From assembly GCA_965207685.1 (NCBI GenBank), contig OZ242294.1, positions 1,226,677 to 1,290,676 of the forward strand: a stretch of 64,000 nt of DNA. Reading direction: 5' to 3'. Below are positions 7,212 to 44,559 of the stretch, in pieces; within the stretch, counting starts at the first letter, position 1; each line of letters begins with the position of its first letter. The notes below the pieces were generated by a model. It had not been told where the DNA came from. It worked only from the letters and a program-made list of their open reading frames with translations, and did no database searches. Made by a program: the position numbers and the translations under genes. The DNA comes from Thermodesulfobacteriota bacterium. Lineage in GTDB: Bacteria; Desulfobacterota_D; UBA1144; Nemesobacterales; Nemesobacteraceae.

Positions 7212-7339
7212 TTGAAAAAATTTTAACCGCCATCCTGCGAGCTTCAATTGCGGTTTGAATCTCCGCCCCTTGGTGCACATCCCAAGCACCTTGCCCGCCG
7301 CCGTAAATCATGTTAGTTTTTAATTTCCGGCTTTAAGTA

Positions 7340-7831
7340 GTGAGGAGGTTCGGAGTGCCTTTCCCCCCCAGGCTCATAGATAAGATACAAGAAATAGCGG
7401 ATGACCACGAAACCAGGCTTTCGGCGCTTATTCCCGTCCTGCGGGAAGTGCAGAACGAGTTCGGCTGGCTTTCCACCGAATCCATGGAAGAAGTCGCCGA
7501 GACGCTTGATATTCCCGCCTCTTCGGTTCAGAACGTTGCTTCATTTTACACCATGTTTTTCACAGAACCCGTGGGAACTCACGTTATGTGGCTCTGCAGG
7601 ACCCTCTCCTGCGCGCTTCGCGGAGCCGAGGGCCTGGAGCATCACCTCTGCAAGCGCCTAGGGGTAAAAACCGGTGAAACGACGGCCGACGGAAAAATAA
7701 CCTTTCTCGAAGCGGAATGTCTTGCTTCCTGCGGTACTGCCCCCGCCATGCTGGTAGACGATACTCTTTACGAGAACCTTACCGAATCGGAAGTTGACAG
7801 AATAGTTGATGAAATCAGGAAAAGGGGATGA
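7340..7831 (+). CDS. nuoE: NADH-quinone oxidoreductase subunit E-like [2Fe-2S] thioredoxin-fold protein (stand-alone)
   Basis: 163 aa with the NuoE/24-kDa-subunit Cys pattern (C..C...C...C in LCRTLSC ... CLASCGTAP). No other nuo genes are adjacent. Confidence 0.7.
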   Translation: MRRFGVPFPPRLIDKIQEIADDHETRLSALIPVLREVQNEFGWLSTESMEEVAETLDIPASSVQNVASFYTMFFTEPVGTHVMWLCRTLSCALRGAEGLEHHLCKRLGVKTGETTADGKITFLEAECLASCGTAPAMLVDDTLYENLTESEVDRIVDEIRKRG

Positions 7832-39379: not shown

Positions 39380-40561
39380 TTACAAGACGTTCTTCCCGAT
39401 CGAGATTTTTCCGAGAAGCGTGGCGTTTCGGGCTCCCGTGACTCCCGGCACGTTTGCCCTGTTCCCGCACACGGTTTCATTCGCGAGCACCGCGAATCCC
39501 ACGGCTTCCTTGGCATCTGCGGGAATGCCGTATTCATCCGAAAGGCAAAGCCTCGTCGGAGCGAGCTTTTCGCGAAGCCTCGAGACCATTACGGGGTTTT
39601 TGGCGCCGCCGCCGCTCAGCACGACTTCTCCCACATCCACACCAGGGTAAACAAACCTTTCATAGGCGGAAACTATGGAGCAGACGGTAAACTCGACGAG
39701 CGTGCGCAGGAGATCGGGAAGGGAAATATCCTTTTTTTCAGCAAACGAAAGAAGCCTCACGACCATTTCCTCTCCGAAAAGTTCCTTACCGGTTGATTTA
39801 GGAGGTTTTATATCAAAATAGGGGTTTTTCATGAGACTACGCAGGAGGTCCTCTTTAACCGAACCTTCCTTCGCTATTGCGCCGTCTTCGTCAAAACTCT
39901 TCTTGCCGCCCGAGGCAAGGCGCGCCACCGAGTCAATCAGGGAATTGCCGGGGCCCGTATCGAACGCCAGGGTCTCCCCGAGTTTTCCCGTGACCAAAGT
40001 GCAGTTGGAAATGCCGCCTATGTTCTGGGCAATTACGTTTTTACCGGTTCCAGAGAACAGCAGGTAGTCAACGTAGGGGATAAGGGGCGCTCCTTCTCCG
40101 CCCGCCGCCATGTCCCTAGTTCTGAAATCTCCCACTGTGGTAATTCCCGTAGCCTCGCAGATAACATCCGCTTCGCCCAGCTGAAGGGTCGAGGAAACTT
40201 CTTGCCCCAGAGAAGGGGGGTTATGAAAAAGTGTCTGGCCGTGGGTACCCACCAGGTCAATCTCGGTCGTTTTCAGTGCGGCTTTCCGGAGAAGATCAAA
40301 GACTGCTGTTGCAAACTCCTGCCCGAGCAGGAAATTCAGATCAGATAGTGAGGAGGTGTTCAGGGTGCCGGGAGAGAGAAGAAGCTTCCTCGCGGCATCG
40401 GAGTATTCCCGGCAGATAAAGTCCTCGATCTGTACTTCTGTATCTTCTCCCGAGCCGCGAATCCTTACCAGCGCCGCGTCAATACCGTCCATCGAAGTCC
40501 CGGAAATGAGACCGACTACCAGTTTTTCTTCTTTTGAAATTATCGGACGGAGCCAGTTCAC
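39380..40561 (-). CDS. anmK: anhydro-N-acetylmuramic acid kinase
   Basis: 393 aa, N-terminal GLISGTSMDGIDAALV signature of AnmK (ASKHA fold). Confidence 0.85.
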   Translation of the reverse strand: MNWLRPIISKEEKLVVGLISGTSMDGIDAALVRIRGSGEDTEVQIEDFICREYSDAARKLLLSPGTLNTSSLSDLNFLLGQEFATAVFDLLRKAALKTTEIDLVGTHGQTLFHNPPSLGQEVSSTLQLGEADVICEATGITTVGDFRTRDMAAGGEGAPLIPYVDYLLFSGTGKNVIAQNIGGISNCTLVTGKLGETLAFDTGPGNSLIDSVARLASGGKKSFDEDGAIAKEGSVKEDLLRSLMKNPYFDIKPPKSTGKELFGEEMVVRLLSFAEKKDISLPDLLRTLVEFTVCSIVSAYERFVYPGVDVGEVVLSGGGAKNPVMVSRLREKLAPTRLCLSDEYGIPADAKEAVGFAVLANETVCGNRANVPGVTGARNATLLGKISIGKNVL

Positions 40562-40579
40562 ATGGAAAAAGCTACCTGA

Positions 40580-40809
40580 TGAAAAAAGGATTTAGCAGGC
40601 AGATGTATTAATTGTTGAGCTTAGAAGAACCCACGAGCTTATGGCAAAGTCCGTTAGGCAAATTTAACGAGTTAAACATCTTACAACCATTTTAAAAGGC
40701 ACATCTTTCTGCGGATATATTATGTATATTTATATATTGACATTATTTATTATTACGTATATATATAACTATACGATGAATCTATTTGCATAGCCATTGA
40801 GGATATACA
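40580..40809. other. AT-rich non-coding segment (islet boundary / promoter region of the mobile mystery protein pair)
   Basis: Sharp drop in GC (e.g. TATATATTGACATTATTTATTATTACGTATATATATAACTATACG) relative to the flanking genes. Confidence 0.4.
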
Positions 40810-41271
40810 ATGAGTGTTAAAACGATTATTACGAGACAGTATCGCGAAAAGCTTAACCAAGCCGCTTTGAAGTTTCAGAATTTCACCCTACCTTCTGAAG
40901 GCTGGATTCGTACAGCCAGAAAAGCTCTTGGCATGTCTGCGGCGCAACTGGCCCGCCGTCTGGGAAAAACCCGAGCACTTGTCTCTAACACAGAAAAGGC
41001 CGAGCTTGACGGTAGAGTGACTTTAAAAACCATGCGGTCCATGGCGGAGGCGGCAAATTGTCGTTTCGTTTATGCTTTTGTACCAGAAGAAAGCGTAGAA
41101 ACCATCATCAGGCAGCGCGCCAGAGAAAAAGCCAAGCAACGCGTGATGGAAGCCTCTAGCCACATGGCACTTGAACAACAAACTATTTCTCAAAGCCAGA
41201 TCGAATTTGAAATAGAACGTCTTGCAGAAAACATTCTCAGAGAACGGCCAGGCTATTTGTGGGACGACTAG
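40810..41271 (+). CDS. mobile mystery protein A (XRE-type HTH; TIGR02612-like)
   Basis: 153 aa. HTH (LGMSAAQLARRLGKTRALVSNTEK) and a C-terminal region typical of the protein A partner of Fic-family protein B. Low GC. Confidence 0.75.
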   Translation: MSVKTIITRQYREKLNQAALKFQNFTLPSEGWIRTARKALGMSAAQLARRLGKTRALVSNTEKAELDGRVTLKTMRSMAEAANCRFVYAFVPEESVETIIRQRAREKAKQRVMEASSHMALEQQTISQSQIEFEIERLAENILRERPGYLWDD

Positions 41272-41280
41272 AATCCAACA

Positions 41281-41871
41281 ATGATGAACCATTCAACAGA
41301 AGATACAATGTCGCTTGATCCCGATGAGGTGCGAGGCCTAAAATTCAAGCACATAACGACGCGGAGCGAACTGAATCATCTGGAACAAGCCAACATCCAA
41401 AGCGGCATAGCATGGATGCGCCAAAGCAGACGCACTGACCTGCTGTCGGAAGGTTACGTATGTCAACTGCATAGACGTCTGTTCGGCGAAGTCTGGTCAT
41501 GGGCAGGGACATTTCGTCATACAGGCAAGAATATCGGGGTTGACCCACTCTATATTGCCGTAGAACTGCGCACACTGCTTGACGACATGAAATATTGGTT
41601 CAACAATGAAACCTATCCGCCGCGCGAAGCGGTAATCCGCTTCCATCATCGTCTGACGGCAATTCATCCCTTTCCCAACGGCAACGGTCGTCATGCCAGA
41701 ATCATGGCGGACGCACTGCTCATCAAATTGTACAAACTACCAACCATAGACTGGGCCGGAGGCCATGATCTCGCTTCTATGAACAGCAGGAGAAAAACCT
41801 ACATTCAGGCGTTGCAAGCGGCGGATAGAGGCAATTACGAGCCCCTGCTCGCATTTGCGGGTATCAGGTAA
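41281..41871 (+). CDS. mobile mystery protein B (Fic/Doc family; TIGR02613-like)
   Basis: Canonical Fic motif HPFPNGNGRHAR (HxFx(D/N)GNGRxxR), 196 aa. Immediately downstream of protein A. Confidence 0.8.
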   Translation: MMNHSTEDTMSLDPDEVRGLKFKHITTRSELNHLEQANIQSGIAWMRQSRRTDLLSEGYVCQLHRRLFGEVWSWAGTFRHTGKNIGVDPLYIAVELRTLLDDMKYWFNNETYPPREAVIRFHHRLTAIHPFPNGNGRHARIMADALLIKLYKLPTIDWAGGHDLASMNSRRKTYIQALQAADRGNYEPLLAFAGIR

Positions 41872-42034
41872 TCAGGTTGATTGGGATACAATAAAAAACC
41901 TGAGTATACCGCCCGTAAAAGTTCTTCTCGATATTGGAACTCACCCTGTCTTTTGGTAGCAAAACTGATTTGTTAACCTCGCAAGATTCCTGATTCGTCA
42001 CCGCCAGCAGAATCTAGGAAACAAGTCACAGGCG

Positions 42035-42967
42035 TCACGGATTCCCCGTTCCTCGGGATGTGCTTCTGAGGGCCTTCTTCAAGTACCCGTCGTTTTCCAG
42101 TAGTAGTTCGACGGACTCTTCAGGCGAGAGACCAACGAGTTTCATTACCACGGCAACCTTGAGATTCCCGTCGGCTTCCCGCAAAAGCGAGGCAGCTTCT
42201 TCTTCCCCCACGCCACATATGTCCATTATGATTCTTCTTGACCTGTCAACAAGCTTCGAGGAAGTGGGCTTAAGATCAACCATCAGGTTTCCGTAAGTCT
42301 TCCCGAGAAGCACCATCGCGGTCGTCGTAACCATGTTAAGAACCATCTTGGTAGCGGTAGCGGCCTTGAGTCTCGTGGAACCCACTATCACTTCAGGGCC
42401 GACAAGAAGGGTTATGACCAAGTCGGCGGGGACGTTCTCCGGCTCGCTGCAGCATACAAGTATGCTTGCGCAGCCAACCGTGCGGGCGTACTCGAGGGCG
42501 GATATCACAAACGGCGTGCCGGAACTTGCCGCGATTCCCAGGACCACGTCGCACTCTGAGAGTTTTTTGTCACGGAGGGCTTCCACGGAAGCCGTAGGGG
42601 AATCCTCAGCTCCCTCGACCGAGTTCCATACCGCATCCCGCCCTCCCGCCATAACCGCCTGCACCGTCTCGGGGTCCGTTCCGAAAGTAGGCGGGCATTC
42701 GGCAGCTTCCATCACCCCGAGCCGCCCGCTTGTTCCCGCCCCGACGAAAAAAACCCTGCCGTTGCTCTCAAGGGAGCGGAAAACCATTTCCGCCGCCTGG
42801 GAGATTGAATCTTTTTCTCTGGAAACAGCCTCAAACGCCGCCTGATCTTCCCCGCTTATAAGATCGATGATCTCAGAACATGAAAGTTCATCGATACTAA
42901 CCGTCCTCGGGTTTACTTTCTCTGTGAGCAGGTGTCCTGTCCGGCGAGTCTTCTCCACAGGAAACAT
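42035..42967 (-). CDS. murQ: N-acetylmuramic acid 6-phosphate etherase
   Basis: SIS domain (VGAGTSGRLG) and MurQ-like length and layout, 310 aa. Confidence 0.85.
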   Translation of the reverse strand: MFPVEKTRRTGHLLTEKVNPRTVSIDELSCSEIIDLISGEDQAAFEAVSREKDSISQAAEMVFRSLESNGRVFFVGAGTSGRLGVMEAAECPPTFGTDPETVQAVMAGGRDAVWNSVEGAEDSPTASVEALRDKKLSECDVVLGIAASSGTPFVISALEYARTVGCASILVCCSEPENVPADLVITLLVGPEVIVGSTRLKAATATKMVLNMVTTTAMVLLGKTYGNLMVDLKPTSSKLVDRSRRIIMDICGVGEEEAASLLREADGNLKVAVVMKLVGLSPEESVELLLENDGYLKKALRSTSRGTGNP

Positions 42968-43058
42968 TATATCTGAAACGTGCGCCGCTTATCCGGAGAA
43001 CCGTCTGTGGTGCCGGTTTGATTTGTAAGCAATATCCGTATAGAGTCCTTTGGGTATT

Positions 43059-43132
43059 GCGGGTGTAGCTCAGCTGGCCAGAGCATTGGCTTCCCAAGCC
43101 AAGGGTCGCGGGTTCGAATCCCGTCGCCCGCT
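43059..43132 (+). tRNA. tRNA-Gly (anticodon CCC)
   Basis: Folded by hand: acceptor stem GCGGGTG/CGCCCGC, D-arm GCTCAGCTGGCCAGAGC, anticodon stem TTGGC/GCCAA with loop TTCCCAA (anticodon CCC at 43093-43095), T-arm GCGGGTTCGAATCCCGT, discriminator U. Confidence 0.8.
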
Positions 43133-43245
43133 CTCACTGCCCAAAAACTGTATTTATTCCGGTCATCACGTTAATATCAAATTTGCCCAGTTTCTATTGA
43201 TAATTTGACCTGAGTTCTATTGACAATTTCACCCTTTTTGATAAT

Positions 43246-44559
43246 GTGTTCAGAAAATTATACGGAGAAAAAACGGTGTCTGAACAAGAAGAGATTTTAC
43301 CGCGTCATTTGTCGACGAAACTCGATAAGGCCCTAGATTCGGCAAGAATAGTAAACATTGTAGGTCCTAGACAGGCTGGAAAAACTACATTGGTACGGGA
43401 TTTGCATAAAAACGGCAGATTCATCACGCTTGACGACGAATCAATGCTCATGGCTATAGAAAACGATCCTGGCGGACAACTCGAAAGCCTGACGACTGGA
43501 CTAGAGACGGAACCTCTGATAATTGACGAAATCCAACGCTCAAAGGGGCTAGTTCTGGCGATCAAAAAGAAAGTCGACGGCAATCGCCGTAAAGGTCAGT
43601 TTATCCTGACGGGTTCTTCAAATATTTTCATGTCCCTTGGAGTCGCCGACTCCCTGGCCGGCCGAATGAGAGTGCTCAAGCTATGGCCGCTGACTGTCTC
43701 GGAAATCAGGAAGCGAAACCCTTCGAGGATACTGACGTGGGCCTTGCGGCCTGCACCGAAACTCGCCGCGCTACCAACACCTGAAAAAACGGACCGTAAG
43801 TCTTACATCGACATAATTCTGCGAGGCGGCTTCCCGGAAATTTTCCCCTTGGAGGCAGAAGAACGGCAAGAATATTATCGGGACTATGTTGACGCCATTG
43901 TGGACAGAGATGTGGCCGACGTTCTTCCCGTACGGAAAACGGATGCCCTCCGACGACTTATCAATCAACTGGCCGTGAGAACCGCTATGGAGTTGAACCT
44001 CTCTGAAATCTGCGAACTGGTCGGCGTTCAACGTAACACGCTTGAGCAATACCTCGAGGTGCTCTTGCGCCTGTCCGTGGTAAACAGGCTGGGAGCATGG
44101 GCGTCGGGCGAATCTAGGCGAGAAATCAAAAACGCAAAAAACCACTTTGTAGACACGGGGGTCGCCTGCGCTCTACGCAGACTGACATCCGAGAGTTTTC
44201 ACGCGGACGCAAATCCAGCTGCATTAGGTGGTCTGCTCGAAAGCTTCGTCTATTCAGAGTTGCTACGTTCAGTTCCGTATCAGGATCAGAATTTTCACTT
44301 TTATCACTGGCGAGACAGTCGCGGACGCGAAATAGATATTGTGGCTGAATCCGCAACTCGACTGATCTGCATCGAAGTGAAGGCTTCAACCACGATCTCG
44401 CCTCAGGATTTGAAGCACCTCAAGTGGTTTGCGAAAAAAGGGCCTGGAACCACCAGAGAAGTGATAGGCTTGGTATTTTATCTCGGCCAAGAAAAGCTCA
44501 GCTTCGGAAACGGCATCTTCGCTCTGCCGGTCAGCATACTGTGGAGCACCGTGTCTTAA
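43246..44559 (+). CDS. AAA+ ATPase with DUF4143 C-terminal domain
   Basis: Walker A GPRQAGKTT, Walker B LIIDEIQ, 437 aa. Confidence 0.75.
   Translation: MFRKLYGEKTVSEQEEILPRHLSTKLDKALDSARIVNIVGPRQAGKTTLVRDLHKNGRFITLDDESMLMAIENDPGGQLESLTTGLETEPLIIDEIQRSKGLVLAIKKKVDGNRRKGQFILTGSSNIFMSLGVADSLAGRMRVLKLWPLTVSEIRKRNPSRILTWALRPAPKLAALPTPEKTDRKSYIDIILRGGFPEIFPLEAEERQEYYRDYVDAIVDRDVADVLPVRKTDALRRLINQLAVRTAMELNLSEICELVGVQRNTLEQYLEVLLRLSVVNRLGAWASGESRREIKNAKNHFVDTGVACALRRLTSESFHADANPAALGGLLESFVYSELLRSVPYQDQNFHFYHWRDSRGREIDIVAESATRLICIEVKASTTISPQDLKHLKWFAKKGPGTTREVIGLVFYLGQEKLSFGNGIFALPVSILWSTVS

Follow-up and report, generated by a model that had tools for sequence, protein, structure and literature searches.

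A two-gene accessory cassette, encoding 'mobile mystery proteins' A (mobA) and B (mobB), interrupts the peptidoglycan-recycling genes in a 64,000-nt stretch of the genome of a Thermodesulfobacteriota bacterium (assembly GCA_965207685.1, contig OZ242294.1, positions 1,226,677–1,290,676). This whole stretch is called the window here, and positions are counted from its first letter. Comparison with related genomes supports the view that the pair is a horizontally derived insertion into an otherwise contiguous murQ–anmK–nagZ–transporter set, and its simplest history is a single insertion near the base of the group of close relatives (the ingroup), after which the pair was inherited vertically under selection and was repeatedly deleted in part or in full. 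Judged from the sequence, the pair is probably an autoregulated type II toxin–antitoxin (TA) or abortive-infection-like module, in which an Xre-type helix-turn-helix (HTH) protein would control a Fic-fold transferase.

mobA (40810–41271, + strand, 153 aa) lies directly upstream of mobB (41281–41871, + strand, 196 aa, a single-domain Fic-fold protein), separated by 9 nt and in the same frame. The open reading frame (ORF) listing places both genes on one strand inside the gap between anmK (39380–40561, − strand; NF007148, 443 bits), which is divergent from mobA, and the MurQ etherase gene murQ (42035–42967, − strand; NF003915, 358 bits), which is convergent with mobB. Residues 8–152 of protein A cover positions 6–149 of the 150-position NCBIfam profile TIGR02612 (mob_myst_A) at 164.6 bits (curated cut-off 122.6), and the protein also matches Pfam HTH_3 at 31.5 bits. 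Similarly, residues 11–193 of protein B cover positions 3–185 of the 186 in TIGR02613 (mob_myst_B) at 266.6 bits (curated cut-off 124.4), with 52.1 bits against Pfam Fic (PF02661; cut-off 24). An earlier sequence-only reading of this DNA had proposed an XRE-HTH protein A and a Fic-motif protein B, and the Pfam and NCBIfam matches above cut-offs bear it out. The arrangement is that of a type II TA system, with small adjacent genes and a candidate antitoxin of the DNA-binding type upstream.

A scan of species-representative genomes with AnmK identified 20 close relatives, all metagenome-assembled genomes of Candidatus Dadabacteria/Thermodesulfobacteriota. Together with the window they form a comparison set of 21 genomes (3 outgroups and 18 ingroup members; the relatives are given as L001, L002 and so on), onto which the window proteins were mapped and whose spacers were aligned. 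The murQ–anmK gap measures 8–20 bp in all three outgroups (67–71% AnmK identity), and the closest relative, L001 (97% AnmK identity), has a clean gap of 61 bp. The adjacency of the two genes in these genomes identifies the pair as an accessory insertion, and together with the ORFs confirms the earlier statement that it sits between two genes that otherwise belong to one functional set. Intact mobA and mobB occur at exactly identical boundaries in 4 of the 18 ingroup genomes (the window, L006, L010 and L016), the insert starting directly behind the murQ stop and ending some 20 nt short of a conserved segment, TGCCTGCTAAA...CATCAGGTAGC, upstream of anmK. In the window the true insert is the entire spacer, 40562–42034; the location first reported (40580–41880) was thus right, but its limits were slightly too narrow. 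The 5′ intergenic region of the cassette (40562–40809) has a GC content of 0.31; some 40 anmK-proximal nucleotides of it (40564–40603) are conserved in all relatives with or without the insert, and the remainder is cassette DNA. The 3′ spacer between the convergent mobB and murQ stops (41872–42034, GC 0.44) is conserved together with the cassette in L006, L010, L016 and L023.

The relatives also reveal how the pair is lost. An orphan mobA with no intact mobB was found in four further ingroup genomes (L003, L004, L011 and L013), and in three of these the homology extends ~46–56 nt (~15–18 codons) into the 5′ end of mobB, which indicates that mobB was deleted. The orphan genes (L003 and L013, both 7262–7723; L004, 210–671; L011, 5815–6276) are intact and constrained, with ratios of nonsynonymous to synonymous divergence (dN/dS) of 0.14–0.39. 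The sole B without A among the 21 genomes is an N-terminally deleted remnant in L023, where a deletion has taken the promoter and mobA together with the first 34 codons of mobB; no intact orphan B was seen. Loss is therefore asymmetric in the manner of TA systems, with four genomes keeping an intact, selected orphan A and B without A seen only in truncated form. No trace of the pair is left in 9 of the 18 ingroup genomes, including L001 and L002.

In a neighbour-joining tree of four flanking proteins, each of the three ingroup subclades contains the pair or its remnants. Further, synonymous divergence (dS) of mobA and mobB is similar in magnitude to the anmK and murQ values: between the window and L006 it is 0.25 for mobA, 0.27 for mobB, 0.375 for anmK and 0.32 for murQ; the corresponding values are 1.15, 0.74, 0.66 and 0.52 for L010, and 0.81, 0.91, 0.50 and 0.75 for L016. 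Both genes are under purifying selection (dN/dS 0.08–0.23 for mobA and 0.10–0.16 for mobB). Presence in all three subclades, flank-like dS and purifying selection date the insertion to about the ingroup ancestor, so that the absences are mainly losses. The orphan-A alleles form one clade in the mobA tree, whereas their hosts are spread over the three subclades of the flank tree. This conflict implies that homologous recombination also shuffles alleles at the murQ–anmK site, and suggests that the orphan-A allele was spread in this way.

The sequence-only reading had taken the pair to be recently acquired, a claim about history alone, made of the window genome, that we now regard as improbable. 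The claim drew on a markedly low GC content and AT-rich flanks, and base composition does favour it in part. With the 55 window ORFs as reference (mean GC 0.542, sd 0.027; mean GC at third codon positions, GC3, 0.626, sd 0.053), mobA has the lowest GC (0.476, z −2.4) and the lowest GC3 (0.455, z −3.2) of all 55, and the 5′ flank is AT-rich. The claim is marginal for mobB, which is only mildly low (GC 0.508, z −1.3; GC3 0.548, z −1.5), and of the two flanks the 3′ one is at 0.44 as against 0.31 at the 5′ end. A recent arrival would also fit the clean 61–64 bp gaps in L001 and L002, and the orphan-A clade shows that recombination does move alleles here. However, every carrier has the insert at the same boundaries, no ingroup subclade is without the pair or its remnants, and the dS of the pair tracks that of the flanks in the comparisons of the window with L006, L010 and L016. 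The AT-rich 5′ flank, moreover, is the conserved promoter and putative operator region of the cassette in every host rather than unameliorated foreign DNA.

This region carries a sigma-70-like promoter (40737–40765, + strand), with TTGACA at 40737–40742, a 17-nt spacer and TATATA at 40760–40765, and a ribosome-binding site, GAGGA (40800–40804, + strand), 5 nt before the mobA ATG. The promoter was read from the sequence; its −10 box ends in A, for which reason a consensus scan passed it over. TTGAC is conserved in 9 of 11 aligned mobA upstream regions. Two 17-nt direct repeats, TATTAYGTATATWTATA, at 40718–40734 and 40751–40767 (+ strand, 33 nt apart), bracket the −35 box as putative operator boxes and are conserved in L006, L010, L016 and L013 and across phyla. 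In addition, an inverted repeat, GTATA-N8-TATAC (40757–40774, + strand), lies over the −10 box and is a candidate operator for protein A; it has a single match in the 64-kb window and none in 100 shuffles. The composite pattern TTGAC-N13-17-GTATA-N7-9-TATAC was found upstream of mobA only, in 8 of 46 loci, including those of Methylotenera and Nitrospirales. Alignment reveals a shared layout of a TGTATAT box, TTGACA, (T/A)GTATA...CTATAC and a GTATAC-like box at the ribosome-binding site or start codon in four other Dadabacteria loci and in the Methylotenera, Nitrospirales, Eilatimonas and Rhodospirillales copies, and the arrangement TTGACA-N14-GTATA-N8-TATAC is recognizable across phyla. Outside Dadabacteria the coding GC of the copies varies widely (0.42–0.63), yet the stretch of 120 nt upstream of A is AT-rich in every one (GC 0.15–0.44). 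Because this holds across hosts whatever the coding GC, the AT-rich flank is no compositional scar; most plausibly it is a conserved functional part of the module, a predicted operator for the HTH protein A. The conservation of an inverted repeat over the −10 box and of repeated boxes is what autoregulation would call for, their operator role being predicted from sequence.

Protein B has the Fic active-site motif HPFPNGNGRHAR at residues 129–140 (from H129 through N133 and R137 to R140; codons at 41665–41700, + strand), with Asn in place of the canonical Asp or Glu. The canonical AMPylating motif HxFx(D/E)GN(G/K)RxxR is departed from at this fifth position and matched at every other. The departure belongs to the family: of the 120 close homologues 118 have Asn at position 5, as do 116 of 119 diverse representatives, and nearly all homologues read HxFxNGNGRxxR. 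Invariance holds for the catalytic His, GNGR and the final Arg, except that a single close homologue has GNSR. Doc proteins have instead HxFx(D/N)(A/G)NKR, with Lys for the second Gly, and this lysine is said, in work by Castro-Roa from 2013, to invert ATP and so give kinase activity. A Doc-like kinase was ruled out for B, as the GNGR glycine is kept across the family.

The AlphaFold2 model of B (mean predicted local distance difference test score 83.5) matches Fic structures at a Foldseek probability of 1.00. Its best matches in the Protein Data Bank are BepC, FICD/Fic-1, EfFic, VbhT, EcFicT and Fic-1/AntF, at template modelling (TM) scores of 0.6–0.68 and 17–26% identity; VbhT, EcFicT, Fic-1 and BepC among them are class I toxins. 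By sequence, no solved structure is closer to B than FICD (E about 1e-8), and the similarity to 7cb8, which we take to be the structure of CccR, is marginal (E 0.0097). Among defence profiles, B matches those of the PADLOC candidate PDC-S04 over nearly its full length (best E 1.2e-22; PDC-S04 has no curated cut-off) and the PADLOC SoFic profile (E 2.6e-15); for the NCBIfam SoFic equivalog it scores 22 bits, where 550 are required. The Asn itself has a characterized precedent. CccR of Yersinia pseudotuberculosis, with the Asn-variant motif HPFGNGNGRTVR, AMPylates FtsZ at Thr8 (PMC9755527), and the Asn of B is therefore compatible with AMP transfer.

Protein A has an Xre-type HTH core at about residues 32–81, preceded by a predicted N-terminal helix (3–22) and followed by predicted C-terminal helices (96–120 and 128–151). 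The core is most similar to the HigA2/HigA3 and HipB antitoxins and to Cro/c2 repressors, with weak Foldseek E values (about 0.1); the extra helices at either end have no structural match, and a search of solved structures by sequence returned only a marginal Xre hit. The family-invariant residues include P28, G31, W32, M119, E122, Q124 and W151, and PxEGW at residues 28–32 is near-invariant.

The known Fic inhibitory motif, [ST]xxxE[GN], was sought in A and B over 240 homologues and 150 representatives. Within B it occurs in 6 of 120 close homologues, which is chance level, and in 16 of 119 representatives, at no conserved position; class II and class III Fic proteins were ruled out for lack of a conserved copy inside B. 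The A protein of the window reads T26-LPS-E30-G31, which fits the motif. Across A homologues, E-G is present at PxEGW in 119 of 120, with S/T at −4 in only 43%, and the prediction there is a loop ahead of HTH helix 1.

These observations fit a module that would work as follows. The Xre-type protein A would bind GTATA-N8-TATAC and the flanking TGTATAT boxes over the TTGACA/TATATA promoter and so repress mobAB. It would also hold B inactive by direct binding, probably through the family-specific N- and C-terminal helices or the PxEGW loop. Depletion of A, by loss of the element, proteolysis or a shut-off of transcription such as phage infection may cause, would release B. Free B, a Fic-fold nucleotidyl transferase with the Asn motif and most likely an AMP transferase, would then modify a conserved essential host protein and arrest growth. 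What the data themselves give is the identity of the family, the order of the genes, the accessory status, age and selection of the pair, the conserved promoter and operator region, the Fic fold and the motif variant; the DNA binding of A, its interaction with B and the toxicity, substrate and target of B are what we infer in this scheme. The TA-like model builds on the gene architecture, the strict co-occurrence of A and B, the asymmetric decay, the candidate operator, a Fic fold whose catalytic core is intact and the genomic company of the pair, and on these grounds we hold it to be the probable one. The sequence-only reading had likewise put forward, as plausible, a Fic toxin and regulator or an abortive-infection-like pair.

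Several points weigh against it. The related PDC-S04 candidate gave no anti-phage activity in the sole native-host test found, and our literature search returned no functional study of, or experiment on, any TIGR02612 or TIGR02613 member. With the inhibitory motif absent from B, and present in A at the PxEGW site in only 43% and in a predicted loop rather than a helix, no canonical route by which A might neutralize B is evident. The Asn that stands at the place of the metal-binding Asp/Glu may signal another chemistry. Further, at 61–75% identity across phyla, B is unusually conserved for a toxin. Some of these points would suit an arrangement in which A is only the repressor of the operon and B a non-toxic regulatory Fic enzyme, for example a reversible AMPylase/deAMPylase or some other modifying enzyme with a specific partner as its substrate, with no addiction or defence module involved. 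The lack of a canonical inhibitory helix together with the Asn may mean that the activity of B is intrinsically low or different, and its very strong conservation across phyla, its long retention under purifying selection in a small 1.9-Mb chromosome and the missing defence phenotype of PDC-S04 point the same way. Fic proteins with deAMPylase or regulatory roles do exist, according to published accounts of SoFic and Fic-1–AntF. Yet orphan A survives while an intact orphan B was never seen, A and B co-occur strictly, and the pair is patchy, borne on plasmids and integrative and conjugative elements (ICEs), and often lost among close relatives, which is typical of selfish or defence modules and not of housekeeping regulators. 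We consider the non-toxic enzyme unlikely on balance.

The stages of decay seen among the relatives would also allow that the pair is decaying in the window too and is a non-functional relic. We give this very little credence: both ORFs are intact and full length against the family profiles, all catalytic and family-invariant residues are present, the promoter and candidate operator are intact, and dN/dS is well below 1. As a more tentative reading, the pair may represent a fourth Fic regulatory class, possible though doubtful at present, in which an Asn-site transferase without a canonical inhibitory Glu helix would be controlled in trans by an Xre-HTH partner and the two would travel between phyla with their own promoter and operator. 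Control would then run through the invariant PxEGW loop or the family-specific C-terminal helices, and the substrate or target may differ from those of the known FicT toxins.

Set beside known systems, the pair is closest to its own family. It resembles the 'mobile mystery protein A/B' hypothetical equivalogs TIGR02612/TIGR02613 in full-length scores, in A-then-B order and in its accessory, mobile setting, and no difference from them was found, so that the window pair is a plain family member. Like VbhT/VbhA, EcFicT/FicA (= YhfG) and Fic-1/AntF, it has a small single-domain Fic gene just downstream of a small partner gene, and B shares with class I Fic toxins a comparable fold (TM 0.6–0.68) and the conserved catalytic His, GNGR and final Arg. 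It differs from them in sequence (18–25% identity), in having Asn rather than Asp/Glu at motif position 5, and in its partner: A is a 153-aa Xre-HTH protein and not a helical peptide of ~60 aa with [ST]xxxE[GN], and a conserved canonical inhibitory helix is not evident in it. Phd/Doc likewise couples a Fic/Doc-superfamily protein to an upstream DNA-binding partner, an antitoxin that autoregulates the operon; unlike Doc, B keeps GNGR, and unlike A, Phd has no Xre HTH. HigA/HipB-type Xre antitoxins, together with Cro/c2, give the best superpositions on the HTH core of A (HigA2/HigA3 and HipB), but at a Foldseek E of about 0.1, the extra N- and C-terminal helices of A finding no structural match.

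CccR, a class II Fic protein with an HTH, shares the Asn motif and also joins a Fic enzyme to an HTH, which in CccR is autorepressing (PMC9755527). In contrast to the window pair, it is one polypeptide of 400 aa with an internal S59ARIEG inhibitory helix and is secreted by the type VI secretion system (PMC9755527), whereas in the window the HTH is on a protein of its own and B carries no such motif internally. The pair also resembles the PDC-S04 (Fic) and SoFic defence candidates of PADLOC, in that B matches their profiles and further TA and candidate defence genes share its hotspot region. It differs from PDC-S04, which is a single-gene candidate and was negative in one native-host test; against SoFic, B falls far short of the equivalog cut-off.

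The family is widespread and mobile, and amounts to about 480 clusters when grouped at 50% identity (E at or below 1e-30). B was found on 253–263 plasmid records and A on 255, a ratio near 1:1 with near-identical genus counts; the carriers include Agrobacterium, Rhizobium, Coxiella, Vibrio and others, and the plasmids include Ti/At and rhizobial ones. A phage origin was ruled out, with no match in the 50,697 phage records of INPHARED and only 18 IMG/VR contigs carrying the family. In all six other contexts inspected (pAt, pTi, Methylotenera, Nitrospirales, Eilatimonas and Rhodospirillales; L040–L045), A lies directly upstream of B, with a 4-bp overlap or a small gap between them. Genes for tra functions or relaxases neighbour the pair on pAt, pTi and the Eilatimonas ICE. 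The Methylotenera copy lies in a restriction–modification/AAA_15-21/SNF2 island with AlpA and a Phage_CRI replication-protein gene, and the Nitrospirales copy near HepT-MNT and a RelA_SpoT gene. A Dadabacteria homologue is already labelled 'mobile mystery protein A', a family name given by the NCBI Prokaryotic Genome Annotation Pipeline (PGAP). Xre–Fic/Doc pairs were counted among predicted TA systems in 2009 (PMC2701414), and TIGR02613 is listed under Fic/Doc in a table of immune systems carried by Tn7-like transposons (PMC8649781). PMC12457610 was set aside as a source on the mobile mystery family, since it concerns RES-Xre instead, and so was PMC6549354, which has no bearing on it.

This company raises the possibility that the pair chiefly aids plasmids and ICEs at the time of their transfer or afterwards, by helping conjugative elements to establish or by countering host defence, for example by modifying a recipient defence or replication factor, and that the chromosomal copy is a stranded passenger. 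The pAt copy lies between a DUF1738-domain gene with DUF736/HU genes and traG/traD/traA, the Ti-plasmid copy adjoins a DUF3991-toprim protein, the Eilatimonas copy is directly downstream of a TrwB coupling protein and a TrwC relaxase, and about 100 of 253 carrier plasmids are conjugative. On the other hand, no conjugation genes lie nearby in the window or in the relatives, other chromosomal copies stand in defence or TA islands rather than transfer regions, and the retention of the pair at dN/dS of about 0.1–0.2, with dS reaching about 0.9, speaks for a cell-autonomous function. We rate a role in conjugation as improbable, and the TA-like module remains the reading that we prefer.

The cassette site is one of two variable sites. 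The tRNA-Gly(CCC) gene (43059–43133, + strand) adjoins murQ in all 20 relatives; it lies 1188 bp from the mobB stop, in agreement with the 1.2 kb given earlier, and murQ keeps the islet apart from it. A second variable site starts at the tRNA 3′ side and extends to GtrA. In the window it holds an accessory AAA_14/DUF4143 ATPase gene (43246–44559, + strand; PADLOC candidate PDC-S01, E 2e-139), which is found at the tRNA-side site in only two other genomes, L016 and L023. This limited occurrence, in three ingroup genomes, upholds the earlier suggestion that the ATPase was acquired. In relatives, the murQ–anmK gap holds an IS30-like transposase, a different DUF4143 ATPase or a 3.4-kb metabolic block, and the tRNA-Gly–GtrA stretch holds HigB with an HTH-M78 gene, transposase-like ORFs, a DprA/SLOG-like gene or the DUF4143 ATPase. 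An integration hotspot, as had been proposed, is thus apparent as a pattern of two variable sites with TA, insertion-sequence and candidate defence genes, but not as a mechanism of integration. No direct or inverted repeats and no target-site duplication were found around the islet, no second copy of the tRNA 3′ end (at least 10 nt) was found, and no integrase ORF lies between anmK and GtrA. A tRNA-targeted integrative island was consequently rejected, there being no integrase, att repeat or flanking repeats, and murQ intervening.

The cargo at these sites is varied. At the tRNA side, four relatives (L003:3027-4543, L006:3694-5297, L007:4541-6177 and L013:4462-5978) carry a HigB toxin gene (Pfam HigB_toxin, E 4e-34), followed by a gene for an HTH_3 protein of 406 aa, whose match to Peptidase_M78 (ImmA/IrrE-like) is weak and does not reach the Pfam cut-off; this pair is a different TA-type module at a neighbouring site. 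Also on that side, L014:3834-5728 holds a DprA/SLOG-like gene (DNA_processg_A, E 2e-65) beside small ORFs without Pfam hits, and may be another defence-type module. A DUF4143 paralogue of 34% identity lies between mobA and anmK in L004 and L011. The 3.4-kb murQ–anmK block of L012 (4580-7926) and L015 (4578-7926) encodes a SAM (S-adenosylmethionine) methyltransferase, an enolase-superfamily protein (MR_MLE_C) and a GFO/IDH/MocA-type oxidoreductase, and is metabolic rather than defence-related. The murQ–anmK gap of five relatives further contains a tandem repeat with a period of 23 nt (AAACCGTAAAYYRGACGCT plus 4 nt) in 1–4 copies (L014:7824-7911, L008:7869-7910, L007:7679-7697, L009:7901-7919 and L004:1034-1052). 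Four of these five carriers lack the pair and the fifth, L004, has the orphan A and a second DUF4143 gene; the window does not have the repeat, which may act in regulation, serve as a recombination site or be left over from other cargo.

The peptidoglycan-recycling set around the cassette lies on the minus strand and comprises MurQ, AnmK, a GH3 NagZ-like hydrolase and an SSS-family transporter. In the outgroups, with 8–20 bp between them, murQ and anmK appear to be co-transcribed. In the window the cassette is convergent with murQ and divergent from anmK; because of the convergence, read-through from murQ would be antisense to mobB and mobA, and the anmK–nagZ–transporter genes must have a promoter within about 250 bp of that of the cassette. 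The scan for intrinsic terminators found no canonical one in either spacer; a hairpin, TCAGGTT-N18-AACCTGA, was read directly after the mobB stop and has no 3′ T-run. An Rfam scan of 40400–43300 (E up to 1) found the tRNA alone. Taken at their longest, the anmK and GH3 nagZ-like ORFs share 91 nt (39380–39470); the nagZ start as listed (GTG at 39470) probably lies too far upstream, since in several relatives the tblastn matches start near residue 31.

The locus is of an already known kind, a plain member of a curated NCBI family that PGAP names, and current views of Fic or TA biology are not overturned by it. What is mildly new belongs to the family and not to the locus, namely Asn at the active site, an inhibitory motif that is missing and a candidate operator that recurs across phyla. 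For the genome, the analysis gives the annotation a history, in which an old accessory cassette splits a peptidoglycan-recycling operon, and the relatives display the stepwise loss of a TA-like module through an intact pair, an orphan A, a truncated B and an empty site. For the family, the Asn variant shared throughout, the lack of a canonical inhibitory motif and a promoter and operator conserved across phyla provide handles for a first experimental characterization.

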